DNA of 64,000 bases from Acidobacteriota bacterium (GTDB lineage: Bacteria > Acidobacteriota > UBA890 > WLXD01). The stretch lies in assembly GCA_965205505.1 (NCBI GenBank), contig CBDBHB010000008.1, positions 320,001-384,000 of the forward strand, given 5' to 3'. A model generated the notes under the pieces. It searched no databases. It worked only from the letters and a program-made list of their open reading frames with translations, and was not told the origin of the DNA. The translations under genes were made by a program, and so were the position numbers. Shown here piece after piece: positions 28,140 through 34,701 of the stretch (positions within the stretch are counted from its first letter, which is position 1; each line of letters starts with the position of its first letter).

Positions 28140-28193
28140 GTCTCGACATCCGTGCACGGAATGCACGGGCAACGACGTGGCCACTGGTCTGGC
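28140..28193. repeat. Cassette left-end repeat X, copy 1
   Basis: Aligns with 30298-30353; shares exact ggcaacgacgtggccac and cgtgcacggaa. Confidence 0.75.
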
Positions 28194-28457
28194 GTTGGAG
28201 GTGGCCGGTGACTCCACTCGGTTCGTGAACCTGGCGCAATACCGCGCATCGAGCCCTCGACAGGTACTTCCTCGCGCCGCGGGCCCGTCCGCGTCTACGG
28301 TGACAGGGTTCCTTCTCCGATCCCCCCGGCCCACGGGCTAGAAGCCTGGTTCATCTGCAGAGGCTCCGCCGGACCGGCAAGATGCACTATGTGACGACGG
28401 GCTAAGCACCACAGCGATGTAGCGTAGCGTCGGTTCCCGCACTATAGCTCTGCAACC

Positions 28458-29957
28458 ATGACGAGAATCGGGATTTGCCTGGTCGTCGTATCACTAGCGC
28501 TCGTGTCGCCATCGGGCAACGCCGCTGGGCAGCACGATGCCAGACACCGCCTGATCGGATCCGGCGAGCTGATCGTGCCGGCCGGTCGGGGACGATGGCA
28601 GGGTTACACGTCGGAGCTGTCGCCCGAACAGCGTGCCACGCTTGGCTCCGACATCACCGTGGCCGAGTACGCGAGGGTCCACGCTGCGCTCGACGCGTAC
28701 GAGCGCACCTACGGGTTGCCGCCGGCAACCAAAACTGACATCTCGACCCGCTACCCCTTTTACCCGCAGGCCGGGGTGCACGAAGGCGACCTGTTCTTTT
28801 CTGGCTTCGTCGACCTGGACCCGACTCAAGGAGATGCCGCCATCTTGGATTGGAATTGCACCGACTACACCTATGATGGGCACCAGGGACACGACTCTGA
28901 CGTGCGGAGCTTCGCGTTCCAGGACATCGGGGTGCCGATCTACGCCGCGCTGGACGGACGCGTGGTCGCTGCTCAGGACGGTAATCCCGACCGCTCGACG
29001 ACGCTGACGTACAAGCCCGCCAACTACGTCATCATCAGCCACGGAGGCGGTCAGCTGTCGCTGTACTGGCACATGCGCAAAGGCAGCGTCGCGGTCAAGA
29101 TGGGCGATGACGTCGTGGCCGGGCAGAGCATCGGCATGACGGCCTCGAGCGGCTACAGTACCGGACCGCACCTGCACTTCGAGACCTGGGTGAAGCGGTT
29201 TGTCATCGAGCCGTTCGCAGGCCGCTGCAACCCGGGCGCCAGCGGCTTCGTCAAGCAGCTCAAGTTCAAGCGCAACACCTACCTGTTCGACGCCGGGATC
29301 ACCCACGAAGAGCTCCGTACGCTAACCGATGACGAGCTGCCGCCCGAGCAACTGCCCTCGTCGGGCCAGTTTCAGACCGACGATGAGTGGCTCTACATCT
29401 GGTTCCTGCTGCAGAACCTACCGGCTAACAGCATCCAGCGGGTGGTGTTCCGGCGGCCCAACAACTCCGTCGCGTTCGACACTGGCGCGCGTGAGCTCGG
29501 CAACATCGATTCTCTCCACTACAGCTGGTGGAGGCAGCGCTGGATCGTCAACGGCATGCGCGTCTTCACCGGCACCTGGAAACTCGAGCTGCACGTCAAC
29601 GGCAAGAAGCTCGCCACGATGCCCTACGAGGTCATGACCAAGCGGGATCCCGAACTGAACCGGGCGCCGGTGGCGCTCAAGAGGGTCAGGTTTCGCAACA
29701 AGCCGAAGGCCCGCAGAGTGCCGTTGTGCGAGATCAAGCACCCGCTGGTGACCGACGACCCGGACTACGACGTCGTCTCGTACCGGTACGTATGGAAGGT
29801 CGACGGCAGGGTTGTGCGGGACGTCACCATCGCAGCGCACTCCGACGCCCTCGCCACCGACCTGTTCGCCAAGGGCGACCGCCTGGAGTGTACCGTGACG
29901 CCGACGGACGGCGATCTGCAGTCGCCCAGCAAGTCGGTTCGCTCCAAGGTGAGGTAG
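28458..29957 (+). CDS. M23 family metallopeptidase, secreted, with C-terminal beta domains
   Basis: YDGHQGHD, LYWHM and STGPHLHFE motifs; signal peptide. Confidence 0.85.
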   Translation: MTRIGICLVVVSLALVSPSGNAAGQHDARHRLIGSGELIVPAGRGRWQGYTSELSPEQRATLGSDITVAEYARVHAALDAYERTYGLPPATKTDISTRYPFYPQAGVHEGDLFFSGFVDLDPTQGDAAILDWNCTDYTYDGHQGHDSDVRSFAFQDIGVPIYAALDGRVVAAQDGNPDRSTTLTYKPANYVIISHGGGQLSLYWHMRKGSVAVKMGDDVVAGQSIGMTASSGYSTGPHLHFETWVKRFVIEPFAGRCNPGASGFVKQLKFKRNTYLFDAGITHEELRTLTDDELPPEQLPSSGQFQTDDEWLYIWFLLQNLPANSIQRVVFRRPNNSVAFDTGARELGNIDSLHYSWWRQRWIVNGMRVFTGTWKLELHVNGKKLATMPYEVMTKRDPELNRAPVALKRVRFRNKPKARRVPLCEIKHPLVTDDPDYDVVSYRYVWKVDGRVVRDVTIAAHSDALATDLFAKGDRLECTVTPTDGDLQSPSKSVRSKVR

Positions 29958-30099
29958 GCGAACGCGCGAAGGAACGCGTCCTGGAGCGAAAGCCTGGGAG
30001 CACCCCGGCCAGAAAGAAGGCTGGAACCGTCGACGGAAGAGGATTACCTCGGAGAATCGCACCAGGCTCAGCCCTGTTGACACCGGACCAGCGACGAAA

Positions 30100-30118
30100 T
30101 GTTAGATGGATGTTAGAT
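30100..30118. promoter_or_regulatory. Putative integrase arm-type direct repeat
   Basis: tgttagatggatgttagat; 17/19 identical to 34547-34565, with 11-bp periodicity. Confidence 0.55.
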
Positions 30119-30204
30119 CGCTGAACGTTCAGCTTGGAACGTGAGTGTCGAGATCCGGCCTTTTGTCGGTTGGATCTCCCTTGTACAGAGCAGCTTACAA
30201 GTAG

Positions 30205-30263
30205 TGCCCAAGGAGGGACTTGAACCCCCACGGGCCGAAGCCCGCTAGGTCCTGAACCTAGTG
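30205..30263 (-). pseudogene. 3' fragment of tRNA-Leu(CAG), att-like
   Basis: Reverse complement gives anticodon arm ctagg-ttCAGga-cctag, a variable arm, T-loop gttcaagtc and acceptor 3' strand; the 5' acceptor strand and D-arm are missing. Confidence 0.85.
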
Positions 30264-30297
30264 AGAGGGCGCGGGCGCGGGCGGTTCCCTGCTCGGT

Positions 30298-32583: not shown

Positions 32584-32822
32584 AGGTCGGCTCGCTGAGC
32601 CCCCAGAGGTCTAAAGGAGTCCATCGTATTCCCCGAAATAATGGTGGAAATGGTGCGGGGATGTGCGACTAGTTGTTCATGTAACATATTGTAGATAAGC
32701 AGTTTATAAGAATTACTATGGCGGTTTCTGCCATCGTCGGCGTTGGGGGAGTCTCGCGGCCCCAAGAGTACGCTACGGGCAGCAGAAGCCGCCCGTTGTG
32801 ATTCCGAACCTGGAGGCAGACT

Positions 32823-34190
32823 GTGAAGCTGCGTTACGCCGTACTGGCGCTCGTCTGCTTCGTCGGGGTCGCACACACTGGCGCAGCCGCACCGCGGGTC
32901 GCGGCGGCGGTGGACAGCGTGGCGCCCGAGCGCATCGTGGTGGTGGGCGGGGGCATCTCTGGCCTGGCGGCGGCGCACACGTTGCACGAGGCCGGTTACG
33001 AGGTCGTGGTGCTGGAGGCCAAGGACCACCTCGGCGGACGCGTCTGGACGGACCGCGCCACGGGGACGCCGCTGGACATGGGAGCCAACTGGATTCAGGG
33101 AGTCCAGGGCAACCCGATCAGCACGCTCGCCGACCAGCTCGGGCTCGAGCGGGTCGTGACCGACTACGACAACACTGCGGACTATGACTTTGACGGCACC
33201 CCGGAGCCGCTGAACCAGGCCCAGTACGCCAGCTGGGAGAGCGTGCTCTGGTCGTACACACGCAGTTTTCTGCGCCGCGCGCCCAACGCCACGATCCAGA
33301 TCATGATCGACCGGGCACGCCAGGCGGGTGAACTCGATACCCTCACGGATCGGCAGCTGGACTTTCTACTCAACAACTACGTTGAGCAGGAGTACGCAGC
33401 CGACGCCGCGGAGATGGCGGTTCGCGGCCTTGGTGAAGGCAAGTCGTTTCGCGGTGACGATGTCGTCTTTCCGGGAGGCTACGACGCCATCATCGCCGCC
33501 TTGGCCAGCGGCTTGAGCGTGCATCTGAGCACCGTGGTGAGGATCATCGAGCACGGGGGTTTCGGGGTCAGGGTGCATACGGACAGCGAGGTGTTCGAGG
33601 CGCAGCGACTCGTGGTAACGCTTCCTCTCGGGGTGCTCAAGTCGGGTGACGTGAAGTTCACGCCGCGGCTGCCGCTCTGGAAGCGTCGGGCAATAGAGCG
33701 GCTCGAGATGGGCGTGTTAAACAAGGTCTGGCTGGTGTTTCCGAACGTGTTCTGGGACGCCGAGGTGCATGCGATCAACTACCTGAGCCAGGGCAAGGGG
33801 CGGTTCTCCTACTGGCTGAACTTGTCACGCCACACCGGTGCTCCGGTGTTGGTGGCGTTCAACGCTGGCGCCTACGGACGAGAAGTGGAAACGCTGAGCG
33901 ACGCGCAAATCATCGACGCAGCCATGCAGGTGCTGCGGAGGATATACGGCGGCGGCATTCCCGATCCGGTGGCAACGCGCATCACGCGCTGGTCCTCGGA
34001 CCCTTTCGCGTATGGCTCGTACTCGTTCCTACCACCTGGTGCGCGGAGCGTTCACCGACGGCGGCTGGCACGAGCCGTCAAGGGCCGACTGTTGTTCGCG
34101 GGCGAGGCGACCAGCCACGAGTACCCGGCTACGGTGCACGGCGCCTACCTGTCGGGGGTGCGGGCGGCAGAGCAGATCCTGGATCGCTAG
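32823..34190 (+). CDS. Flavin-dependent amine/polyamine oxidase family protein, secreted
   Basis: VVGGGISGLAAA, EA.D..GGR, MGANWI and FAGEAT..TVHGAYLSG motifs; signal peptide. Confidence 0.9.
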   Translation: MKLRYAVLALVCFVGVAHTGAAAPRVAAAVDSVAPERIVVVGGGISGLAAAHTLHEAGYEVVVLEAKDHLGGRVWTDRATGTPLDMGANWIQGVQGNPISTLADQLGLERVVTDYDNTADYDFDGTPEPLNQAQYASWESVLWSYTRSFLRRAPNATIQIMIDRARQAGELDTLTDRQLDFLLNNYVEQEYAADAAEMAVRGLGEGKSFRGDDVVFPGGYDAIIAALASGLSVHLSTVVRIIEHGGFGVRVHTDSEVFEAQRLVVTLPLGVLKSGDVKFTPRLPLWKRRAIERLEMGVLNKVWLVFPNVFWDAEVHAINYLSQGKGRFSYWLNLSRHTGAPVLVAFNAGAYGREVETLSDAQIIDAAMQVLRRIYGGGIPDPVATRITRWSSDPFAYGSYSFLPPGARSVHRRRLARAVKGRLLFAGEATSHEYPATVHGAYLSGVRAAEQILDR

Positions 34191-34546
34191 CGGATCCGCA
34201 CGGCTGCTCTACGGGGCCGCCTGTGCAGAGAATAGCCAGCCGCGTCGTGGTCGAGAGTGTCATAGTCGGCGCGCCTATCTGCGCCGTCTTCGGCACGCCG
34301 CGTGGTAGGCCGCAGAGTAGCTGACTGGATACGTCTCGACGCAACTGCGGCTCATGGCCGGCTCGCGTGCGCGGCGACGGTACCGGTCGCGTGCGGCTCT
34401 CGCGGCGCGGCGGTGTTGACGTGGCGGCGTGTCACCCCTCGCCGCTGACGCATCCGCTGCATCTCCCCGGCGCGTCGCCGTCAGGTCTCTCGTCGGTAGA
34501 GTGCGGGACTCGATCGGTCGAGAAACGATGCCCCGAGGCCAGGCCG

Positions 34547-34565
34547 TGTTAGACGGACGTTAGAT
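34547..34565. promoter_or_regulatory. Putative integrase arm-type direct repeat
   Basis: tgttagacggacgttagat, matching 30100-30118. Confidence 0.55.
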
Positions 34566-34570
34566 AGAAC

Positions 34571-34611
34571 GACGAAAGGGACCAGGCGTCTCCGACTTGG
34601 TCCCTTTCGTC
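34571..34611 (-). terminator. Hairpin downstream of tRNA-Met
   Basis: 14-bp IR gacgaaagggacca / tggtccctttcgtc. Confidence 0.65.
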
Positions 34612-34627
34612 ATCGGCACTTACGCAG

Positions 34628-34701
34628 TAGCGGGGGCAGGATTTGAACCTGCGACCTTCGGGTTATGAGCCCGACGAGCTACCGAACTGCTCCACCCCGC
34701 A
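34628..34701 (-). tRNA. Initiator tRNA-fMet (CAT)
   Basis: Full cloverleaf; anticodon arm tcggg-ctCATaa-cccga with three G-C pairs; 1:72 mismatch; CCA not encoded. Confidence 0.97.

Follow-up and report, generated by a model that had tools for sequence, protein, structure and literature searches.

The locus at positions 28,140 to 34,701 is best read, with a probability of roughly 65%, as a decayed composite genomic island downstream of a tRNA-fMet gene, assembled from end segments of tyrosine-integrase elements whose crossover takes place in tRNA anticodon loops. It lies in a 64,000-nt stretch of DNA, here called the window, from a genome that is probably of the Acidobacteriota, and it looks like a stack of element ends, in part deleted, left next to a tRNA gene by mobile DNA of the ordinary, integrase-driven kind. 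An earlier note had divided the locus into two units (unit 1, 28140-30263; unit 2, 30298-34701), each running from a repeat named X through cargo to a 19-mer motif, a hairpin, CTTAC, and a tRNA 3' end. Because unit 1 retains an integrase stub whose gene is whole in a relative, we favor familiar genomic-island decay over a novel integrase-free element; taken part by part, unit 1 is best read as derived by deletion in the manner of a CIME, and unit 2 as two element ends joined into a chimera. The features are listed in Table 1.

Table 1. Features of the proposed tRNA-fMet island and its left flank (window coordinates)
Feature	Position	Strand	Remarks
Abi_C-family (abortive infection) pseudogene	27176..27771	+	frameshifted, three pieces; phrog_23253 in three consecutive pieces; Pfam Abi_C E 1.6e-10
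Degenerate att core	28091..28098	-	CCTGAACC (GGTTCAGG in tRNA sense); identical to tRNA-Leu anticodon-loop core
X copy 1	28140..28193		probable att-arm region; GGCAAC-N5-GGCCAC, 11-bp period
P4-like tyrosine integrase 5' stub, 29 codons	28248..28334	-	cut by deletion; inside unit 1
M23 peptidase, 499 aa	28458..29957	+	unit 1 cargo; PF01551 E 3e-19; Sec-type leader by eye
Putative arm-type integrase site	30100..30118	+	two TGTTAGA units, 11-bp period; 131 nt from Leu anticodon loop
Spacer with weak hairpins and CTTAC (30194-30198)	30119..30203	-	last 25 nt unlike L014 (17/25 identical)
tRNA-Leu(CAG) 3' half	30204..30263	-	junction between units; overlap core 30250-30256; begins just before anticodon stem
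X copy 2	30298..30353		distance to Leu core equals that of copy 1
Rieske oxygenase alpha subunit, 507 aa	30493..32016	+	closest model GbcA, far below cut-off; predicted twin-arginine leader
Mosaic spacer, 800 bp	32017..32822		single inverted ATCTAAC 32171-32177; AT-rich att-like stretch 32600-32740 (GC 0.45)
Flavin amine oxidase, 455 aa	32823..34190	+	PF01593 E 2e-87; Sec-type leader by eye
Putative arm-type integrase site	34547..34565	+	101 nt from fMet anticodon center
Strong terminator-like hairpin	34571..34611	-	17-bp stem; downstream of tRNA-fMet
tRNA-fMet, intact	34627/8-34701	-	island anchor; tRNA-Met(CAT); anticodon loop 34663-34669

As the earlier note held, unit 1 carries an M23 peptidase gene and ends in a tRNA-Leu(CAG) 3' half. 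Between X copy 1 and this gene sits the integrase stub, in which 27 of 29 amino acids are identical to residues 1-29 of a 405-aa integrase (E 2.4e-11) encoded in an Acidobacteriota relative (locus L014, CAXWPH010000015.1, examined over 10 kb on each side of the motif). When both integrases of that locus were analyzed with Pfam, the 405-aa protein showed Arm-DNA-bind_3 and Phage_integrase domains, and it bears the R-K-H-R-H-Y motifs. Unit 1 is common to the window and L014 at 94.5%, the M23 gene alone at 95.1% nucleotide identity, and comparison of the two sequences shows that unit 1 lost its integrase by deletion from an integrase-bearing segment that is whole in L014; this P4-like integrase need not bind the 19-mer. 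L014 differs from the window on both sides of unit 1, so the region is not invariant, in line with the variability among relatives that had been anticipated. The earlier statement that the window holds no integrase is right for intact enzymes, none of which was found among 72 of the 231 ORFs or among all stop-to-stop ORFs of at least 30 aa, but it does not allow for the stub. No more integrase remnants were found in 74 six-frame ORFs between the cargo genes, and neither relaxase nor excisionase was found in the units. Island debris extends left of 28140, where the earlier note had unit 1 begin; the degenerate core was missed in that note. A search for Rfam families in positions 15,000-40,000 returned none besides tRNA, and a promoter and terminator scan stayed at chance level.

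The two X copies share 83.9% identity over 56 nt in a self-BLAST of the window (E 7e-9), which contained no third copy. An 8-nt core of the Leu anticodon loop lies 77 nt before the GGCAAC pair in both copies (null P 0.0016), and because of this exact register X is probably an att end as well. The degenerate core is probably the true left end of unit 1, which is thereby bracketed by identical 8-nt cores spaced 2160 nt apart; no tRNA 3' half follows the left core, and the consensus of the left arm (X) is unlike that of the right arm. X had no significant match in the plasmid and phage sets (E of 1 or worse). Other natures for X were considered and rejected: read as coding in the plus frame, it had no homologue among 88 candidates (weak evidence); in the minus frame it had two matches, both long repetitive Thr/Ser-rich proteins judged compositional; and as a structured RNA it gave folding z scores between -1.2 and +1.8. 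Other dispersed repeat families are also present in the window.

The 19-mer occurs twice in the window, with two differences between the copies and no further copy even when three mismatches were allowed, against a chance mean of 0.01 in 100 shuffles. Judged from sequence, it is an arm-type site of tyrosine integrases, whose N-terminal domain in principle binds arm-type direct repeats (PMC2951348). The proposal that tyrosine-integrase element ends lie here at tRNA genes, with the 19-mer as arm site, is borne out by its genome matches, 12 of 20 of which adjoin a tRNA or tRNA piece. The distance from arm to anticodon center is 101-104 nt, mostly about 103 nt, in 8 of 12 measured junctions, and the spacing of about 131 nt seen in unit 1 recurs in four loci (L001, L004, L017, and L020). 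Five of six tRNA fragments end at the anticodon loop; the motif accordingly has the layout of an A-site arm, with direct repeats that are spaced by one helical turn and stand at a fixed distance from the tRNA crossover core. The anticodon loop is the site of crossover, rather than the tRNA 3' end, where integrase targeting had been placed. For unit 1, a T-loop crossover was also considered, the Leu T-loop being 103 nt from the arm, yet the anticodon loop is preferred because the L014 fragment begins there and the spacing of about 131 nt recurs. Counting loci and window together, the 19-mer pairs with six tRNA types, in both orientations for tRNA-Arg. Integrases are oriented toward the motif in three loci (L001, L002, and L006); L002 also encodes a D5-like primase, and immediately upstream of the L002 integrase lies a second, inverted pair of TGTTAGA units. 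No integrase was found in 7 of the 12 tRNA-linked loci, 5 of which have less than 3.5 kb upstream, while L017 and L018 lack one in 9.5-10 kb of upstream sequence. X was present in none of the 20 loci within flanks of up to 10 kb (the genome-wide scan used the 19-mer, not X), and the arm on the other side of the core in L017 and L020 is a further TGTTAGA repeat, not X; a dedicated X/19-mer cassette family mobilized in trans, as first put forward, is not supported by these loci.

The single intact tRNA of the window, tRNA-Met(CAT), has a U1:U72 mismatch, and its anticodon stem starts from three G-C pairs at the base; we take both to be fMet hallmarks, and its assignment as tRNA-fMet is right on these grounds. 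No duplicate of it longer than 12 nt that could serve as attR was found in the window, and neither X junction holds an fMet 3' half. The tRNA-Leu 3' half matches an annotated phage tRNA-Leu, and its counterpart in L014 starts precisely with the anticodon loop. In neither genome does the Leu junction sit under an intact tRNA of its own kind: the tRNA is fMet here and Glu in L014; against plasmids and phages, the tRNA-Leu part alone matched among the matches listed (25 of 112; 25 of 132). The earlier description of one architecture shared by both units holds for X, the 19-mer, CTTAC, and the tRNA ends, but not for the hairpins, which are not homologous: the 62-nt fMet spacer folds at -32.1 kcal/mol (z -5.1, 0 of 200 shuffles as stable), while unit 1 has only weak local stems (z -2.3). 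Nor is CTTAC conserved elsewhere; it precedes both tRNA ends in the window, where it has 37 occurrences in 128,000 positions, but it is absent from all six other spacers between a 19-mer and a tRNA 3' end, that of the unit 1 orthologue included.

Unit 2 carries, as described before, a Rieske alpha subunit and an amine oxidase followed by the intact tRNA-fMet. The leaders of all three cargo enzymes resemble export signals by eye, as had been claimed, although the Rieske leader matches Pfam TAT_signal weakly and below cut-off (E 0.013). A twin-arginine motif is present in 110 of 120 Rieske homologues, so the export leaders are family traits. No reductase gene was found beside the Rieske gene, and a literature search on exported Rieske oxygenases and Acidobacteriota islands returned nothing relevant. 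The cores of unit 2 are of Leu type at one end and fMet type at the other, with four of seven overlap bases in agreement, and it is the Leu stem rather than the fMet stem that the sequence beside X copy 2 complements. In favor of a minimal integrase-less unit, unit 1 does have matching 8-nt cores and no working integrase; the cores of unit 2 mismatch. The intervening mosaic spacer, probably a seam between two element ends, had no Pfam or PHROG match in six frames, and its AT-rich stretch matched plasmids and phages at E 0.4 or worse.

These observations suggest a course of events in which each element would have entered by ordinary integration with its self-encoded integrase. Later, most of the unit 1 integrase may have been lost in a deletion that brought an X-type end up against the stub, so that unit 1 became a CIME-like remnant. 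In unit 2, the tRNA-proximal end of an fMet element (amine oxidase, arm, and tRNA 3' half) would have been fused to the distal end of a Leu element (Rieske gene, X copy 2, and core), probably at a presumed seam within the mosaic spacer. A cognate integrase acting in trans could in principle excise unit 1 by itself; an enzyme that depends on homology could not excise unit 2. The cargo today is probably fixed, or mobile solely as a passenger of a larger element.

It is unlikely, we think, that X and the 19-mer are the ends of a true non-autonomous mini-element family whose integrase is encoded elsewhere and which stacks across tRNA anticodon loops with tolerance of mismatches, although the twice-repeated layout, the exact core-to-X register, the identical cores around unit 1, the common CTTAC, the six tRNA types, and the two loci with long integrase-free upstream regions (L017 and L018) all speak for it. 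The same X-to-19-mer order, core-to-X distance, and CTTAC tail in two consecutive units weigh against the decayed island, one family with X and the 19-mer at its ends being simpler; for the decayed island to hold, two X-type ends must have come to lie next to two 19-mer ends, which counts against it, and the decayed island leaves unexplained the Leu junction under different intact tRNAs in both genomes. The 7 of 12 tRNA-linked loci without an integrase also tell against it, though most of these are short upstream. A mini-element family is, however, hard to reconcile with the integrase stub and its intact L014 parent, with the absence of X from the 20 loci and from significant plasmid or phage matches, with the TGTTAGA-type partner arms, with X junctions that lack an fMet 3' half and an X copy 2 flank complementary to the Leu stem, and with units in which no relaxase or excisionase was found. 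Its more specific form, in which X and TGTTAGA are the unlike ends of Acidobacteriota mini-elements and an integrase elsewhere in the genome cuts out and re-inserts 2-4 kb cassettes of single exported enzymes at various tRNA anticodon loops despite mismatches, so that they would accumulate across tRNA isoacceptors, is more doubtful again. The decayed island is further favored by the mostly fixed arm-to-anticodon spacing at tRNA-linked loci, the integrases pointing at the motif, the mismatched cores of unit 2 with no second tRNA-fMet piece in the window, the leftward debris, and the tandem CIMEs described in the available text of two reports (PMC7563491, PMC5704250).

There is also only a slim chance that the 19-mers and tRNA pieces alone are att remnants and X an unrelated small repeat or a regulatory site of two exported-enzyme genes. 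X does lie upstream of both cargo genes in one orientation, lacks TGTTAGA, and has other repeat families for company in the window, but its exact Leu-core register in both copies argues otherwise, as do the L014 M23 gene, which retains its upstream 200 bp without X, and the stub between X copy 1 and the M23 gene. An assembly chimera at repeats as the source of the Leu/fMet juxtaposition is improbable: neighboring genes are frameshifted, which sequencing error can also cause, but the repeats, which are short, have diverged (X 84%; 19-mer, two differences), and a comparable juxtaposition, involving another tRNA, is present in the independent L014 assembly. A cassette array of the integron type, with attC sites, can hardly be credited. 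GTTAGAT presumably fits the GTTRRRY box, and one ATCTAAC...GTTAGCC pair lies at about 32171-32228; yet this attC-like palindrome folds weakly (-8 kcal/mol) and lies 155 bp from the preceding gene, no attC-like site was seen by eye after the M23 or amine oxidase gene, no integron integrase (intI) was found in the window, and the 19-mer is built as a direct repeat and goes with tRNAs.

Read as a decayed island, the locus is a well-mapped case, from an uncultured lineage, of a known process: islands accumulate at tRNAs and shed their integrases, and the enzyme cargo stays. The TGTTAGA double repeat, which in either tRNA orientation keeps about 103 nt from the loop, may mark att sites in anticodon loops that island finders relying on integrases would pass over. 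That two related genomes each have a tRNA-Leu att junction beneath another tRNA is a hint that composite islands change from one tRNA locus to another. Should the trans-mobilized, mismatch-tolerant reading be true, for which the odds are long, it would describe a cassette system on tRNA att sites comparable to integrons and relevant to integrase engineering.

Among known systems, IMEs and mobilizable genomic islands (MGIs) likewise need a helper for part of their mobility, but they have genes of their own for excision and integration and use trans mobilization for transfer only, whereas the units here encode no integrase and no relaxase was found (PMC5704250). In the available part of the Islander report, 2083 of 3919 islands are A-site, 159 have a 5' fragment, and 125 are tandems; as here, tyrosine-integrase elements divide the tRNA at its anticodon loop, so that a 3' or 5' piece of it remains, but Islander demands an integrase ORF and a cognate tRNA-fragment pair, which neither unit has within the window (PMC4383910), where the one intact tRNA is fMet, the fragment is Leu, and no tyrosine integrase ORF is present. 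CIMEs of 1.2-13 kb occur in tandem in streptococci, according to the portions available of two reports (PMC7563491, PMC5704250), which also describe chimeric att junctions between unrelated elements in such arrays; the resemblance extends to small cargo units with integration and transfer genes deleted, to tandem accretion at the target gene, and perhaps to the att sites that CIMEs keep. Like a CIME, unit 1 has no functional integration or transfer genes (the stub only; no relaxase or T4SS family match) and arose by deletion from an integrase-encoding element; no parent was seen for unit 2, whose ends do not form an attL/attR pair (four of seven bases; no fMet fragment elsewhere in the window). 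As far as those portions go, the streptococcal members have one target gene, whereas here a tRNA-Leu junction lies under tRNA-fMet, the unit 2 cores mismatch, the far end of unit 1 is degenerate, and the array has no functional ICE or IME. The ssrA islands of Dehalococcoides differ, in what was available of their description, in using a serine recombinase, a tmRNA target, and a single 20-bp repeat throughout; like the present units, they are stacked downstream of an RNA gene, and the 15 that carry enzyme cargo without an integration module were proposed to be CIMEs or fixed remnants (PMC3146451).

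Window self-comparison and tRNA calls bore out the repeats and tRNA sequences from which an earlier note had built two consecutive units, unit 1 (28140-30263) and unit 2 (30298-34701). Each opens with a copy of a repeat, X, and has a 19-bp motif (19-mer), a TGTTAGA-type double repeat, near its tRNA end. No third X copy was found in the whole window, and two 19-mer matches occurred in 0 of 100 shuffles. We take the tRNA-Met(CAT) to be the initiator from its U1:U72 mismatch and the three G-C pairs in its anticodon stem. The cargo was likewise upheld as an M23 peptidase (unit 1) and a Rieske oxygenase with an amine oxidase (unit 2). 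The hairpin was not common to both units, the two having no sequence in common and differing in strength (z -5.1 and -2.3); the pentamer CTTAC before both tRNA ends has few occurrences in the window (37 in 128,000 positions), yet 6 of 6 comparable spacers elsewhere lack it.

Features of the window and of the related locus L014 (positions in the window unless prefixed)
Feature	Position	Strand	Remarks
X copies	28140-28193; 30298-30353		83.9% identity over 56 nt, E 7e-9 (window self-comparison)
19-mer copies	30100-30118; 34547-34565		only two in window
tRNA-Leu(CAG) 3' half	30204-30263	minus	
tRNA-Met(CAT)	ends at 34628	minus	sole intact tRNA in window
Rieske alpha subunit	30493-32016	plus	
attC-like box pair	32171-32228		weak hairpin
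Short ORF	about 32327-32584	plus	about 85 codons; no Pfam or PHROG match
AT-rich att-like stretch	32600-32740		GC 0.45; imperfect ATGGTG direct repeat, short palindrome; no plasmid match
Leader sequence, five copies	7219-7297; 8643-8750; 19295-19327; 21926-22021; 24522-24820		
MITE-like palindromic element	19949-20228		280-bp, CTAG ends
Shorter MITE relatives	932-997; 2028-2053; 50066-50097; 51031-51067; 58926-58945; 60446-60480; L014:17863-17927		
Palindrome	23229-23253		25-bp
Related half-site	about 24490		begins ACTGTCAAG
Cluster of B12-binding radical SAM enzymes, methyltransferases and glycosyltransferases	36233-45922		upstream of tRNA
IS3-family element	62334-63712		99.3% identity to L014 copy

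Unit 1 is a deletion derivative of an integrase-bearing segment. An Acidobacteriota MAG (L014, CAXWPH010000015.1) matches positions 28254-30256 at 94.5%. At the place of the first X copy it encodes an integrase of 405 aa, oriented divergently to the M23 gene, which carries Arm-DNA-bind_3 and catalytic domains together with the full set of catalytic motifs; the window retains the first 29 codons of this integrase at 28248-28334 (27 of 29 identical, E 2.4e-11). The deletion would have removed most of the integrase, leaving this stub, and "integrase-less" here describes a decayed state; no whole integrase was found. X is not present in L014, whose Leu fragment begins exactly at the anticodon loop. 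Past that fragment L014 has another arm pair (GTTACC), IS3 pieces, what remains of the 3' end of a second integrase and, instead of tRNA-fMet, an intact tRNA-Glu; the integrase remnant and IS3 pieces lie within the ~2.6 kb by which the tRNA-Leu att junction lies downstream of tRNA-Glu (L014:10106-12868). The junction thus sits under a different intact tRNA in window and L014 alike, and the comparison, with L014 differing on both sides of unit 1, supports a locus variable between relatives, as the earlier note had expected. The identity of the IS3 copies suggests recent exchange or close kinship.

The 19-mer is a predicted tyrosine-integrase arm site, as had been claimed, borne out by its fixed distance to the tRNA anticodon and by integrases facing it in some loci. 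When GTDB genomes were scanned for exact matches, 20 loci emerged, of which 10 are titled Acidobacteriota, from 8 genomes. In 12 of 20 loci tRNA sequence lay no more than about 140 nt from the motif (6 intact genes and 6 fragments, the fragments read from sequence), and the remaining 8 include probable chance matches. Possibly, some tRNA-less copies are att sites in non-tRNA targets: L003:10001 and L009:7562, in one Acidobacteriota genome, have 60-bp flanks in common, and at L010:10001 and L019:10001, in two other genomes, the repeat forms longer arrays with three to four units each. In 8 of the 12 junctions measured, 101-104 nt separate the motif from the anticodon centre (92, 131, 135 and 136 in the others); the count takes in 10 loci and both window copies and leaves out L004, whose tRNA lies upstream, and L006, whose fragment ends at the T-loop. 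This distance is the same whether the tRNA 3' or 5' end faces the motif, and the anticodon loop is where 5 of the 6 fragments end. In L013 versus L015 and in L012, L017, L018 and L020, the arm family occurs at tRNA-Arg(CCG) in both orientations and at tRNA-Val(TAC) from the 5' side, always with 102-104 nt to the anticodon centre. Tyrosine integrases are oriented toward the motif in L001, L002 and L006, the L006 gene ending about 15 nt short of it; L002, a full element, also encodes a D5-like primase, and its integrase has a second TGTTAGA pair, in inverted orientation, immediately upstream. An obligatory motif-integrase link is opposed by 7 of the 12 tRNA-linked loci, where no integrase was found in the sequence examined (all 6338 ORFs in one scan, 150 of 183 selected ORFs in another; upstream DNA <3.5 kb in 5 of the 7), and by L015, whose only recombinase is IS91-linked and 8 kb from the motif.

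X gave no coding or folding signal and no significant match in plasmid or phage sequences. It holds a pair with an 11-bp period, GGCAAC-N5-GGCCAC, and 77 nt ahead of this pair in both copies (28091, 30251) is the octamer CCTGAACC, spanning the Leu anticodon loop; an in-register run as long was seen in 0.16% of 200,000 random segments. Because the octamer keeps this register, which the earlier note had not reported, X is most likely part of the far end of a tRNA-Leu element, in support of its reading as an element end. The 19-mer does not usually have X as its partner, and the proposed co-occurrence of the two as element ends elsewhere was not seen: BLAST, pattern and profile searches placed X in 0 of the 20 loci (284,214 bases; flanks at most 10 kb, the far ends of large elements lying beyond reach). 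Both arm sites of one integrase generally have a common consensus. On the other side of the core (the 8-nt anticodon-loop crossover sequence), at a distance of 131 nt, L017 and L020 have an arm that once more consists of TGTTAGATGG twice, as would be expected if one integrase domain binds both arms; excerpts of PMC2951348 assign arm binding to the integrase N-terminal domain.

Unit 2 did not hold up as a clean cassette: the loops at its ends, Leu and fMet, are identical at 4 of 7 bases, and standard tyrosine integrases recombine identical cores (PMC2951348, in part). It would instead be the near end of an fMet element fused, at a putative seam, to the far end of a Leu element; no displaced fMet fragment was found in the window. 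Its two genes are set apart by 800 bp of mixed sequence. Downstream of the Rieske gene, the attC-like boxes may alternatively represent a single arm unit in inverted orientation, the short ORF reads like a real protein, and the AT-rich stretch resembles a third att remnant.

The export-type leaders of the cargo enzymes are visible by eye but are family traits: 110 of 120 Rieske homologues have a twin-arginine motif among their first 70 residues, against 0 of 120 for each of three control windows, and among 14 amine oxidase homologues inspected several have hydrophobic leaders. Cargo GC3 (0.83-0.86) is similar to that of neighbouring genes (0.77-0.85). The Rieske protein is thus one of a large family in which the twin-arginine leader is conserved (homologues P0121-P0240), the few named members being Acidobacteriota. 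Rieske oxygenases are typically cytoplasmic and reductase-dependent, so that an exported form would have to draw its electrons from elsewhere. A literature search on exported Rieske oxygenases gave nothing on point, and the family is possibly more novel than the tRNA-cassette observation.

The island reaches left of the units, as judged from a frameshifted Abi_C gene, a GC of 0.62 over 17,001-28,139 versus 0.65-0.66 on the flanking sides, and a symporter with a GC3 of 0.47. Three of the five leader copies continue into the beginning of a Ser/Thr kinase gene that breaks off, with unrelated DNA after it, and these sites look like a hotspot of repeated recombination or insertion; the 25-bp palindrome and its half-site are possible insertion-sequence scars.

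Altogether, we read the region as a decayed composite island whose features are real and whose history is of a known kind (probability about 0.65). This reading does not account for the same layout and CTTAC tail in both units or for a Leu junction beneath two different tRNAs (fMet, Glu), and the core register of X, with unit 1 measuring 2160 bp core to core, favours the earlier note's family of cassettes mobilised in trans. Such a family is nonetheless unlikely, given an integrase decayed in unit 1 and whole in L014, 0 of 20 loci with X, a TGTTAGA-type partner arm in L017 and L020, and the mismatched cores (4/7) of unit 2. Slightly less probable still is that X is unrelated to att, against which stands the Leu-loop octamer in register before both copies. 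We consider an assembly chimera highly improbable and an integron-like arrangement even more so.

The decayed-island reading has counterparts among known systems. In excerpts of PMC5704250 and PMC7563491, cis-mobilizable elements (CIMEs) no longer have integration and transfer genes but keep attL and attR; they are cargo-bearing units of 1.2-13 kb that occur as tandem arrays at target genes, where unrelated elements meet in chimeric junctions. Unit 1 would work like a CIME with a putative att pair, whereas unit 2, whose att ends do not match, is not classed as one. Because an IME has an integrase of its own, neither unit qualifies as such an element. Fifteen stacked islands without an integration module are reported at Dehalococcoides ssrA (PMC3146451, in part). 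A literature search on integrase-less or trans-mobilised tRNA islands found no publication on the 19-mer, which does not prove absence. In the part of PMC4383910 describing Islander, the crossover is anticodon-centred in 2083 of 3919 islands, 159 of these with 5' fragments, and the 19-mer loci are like these islands in having a crossover centred on the anticodon.
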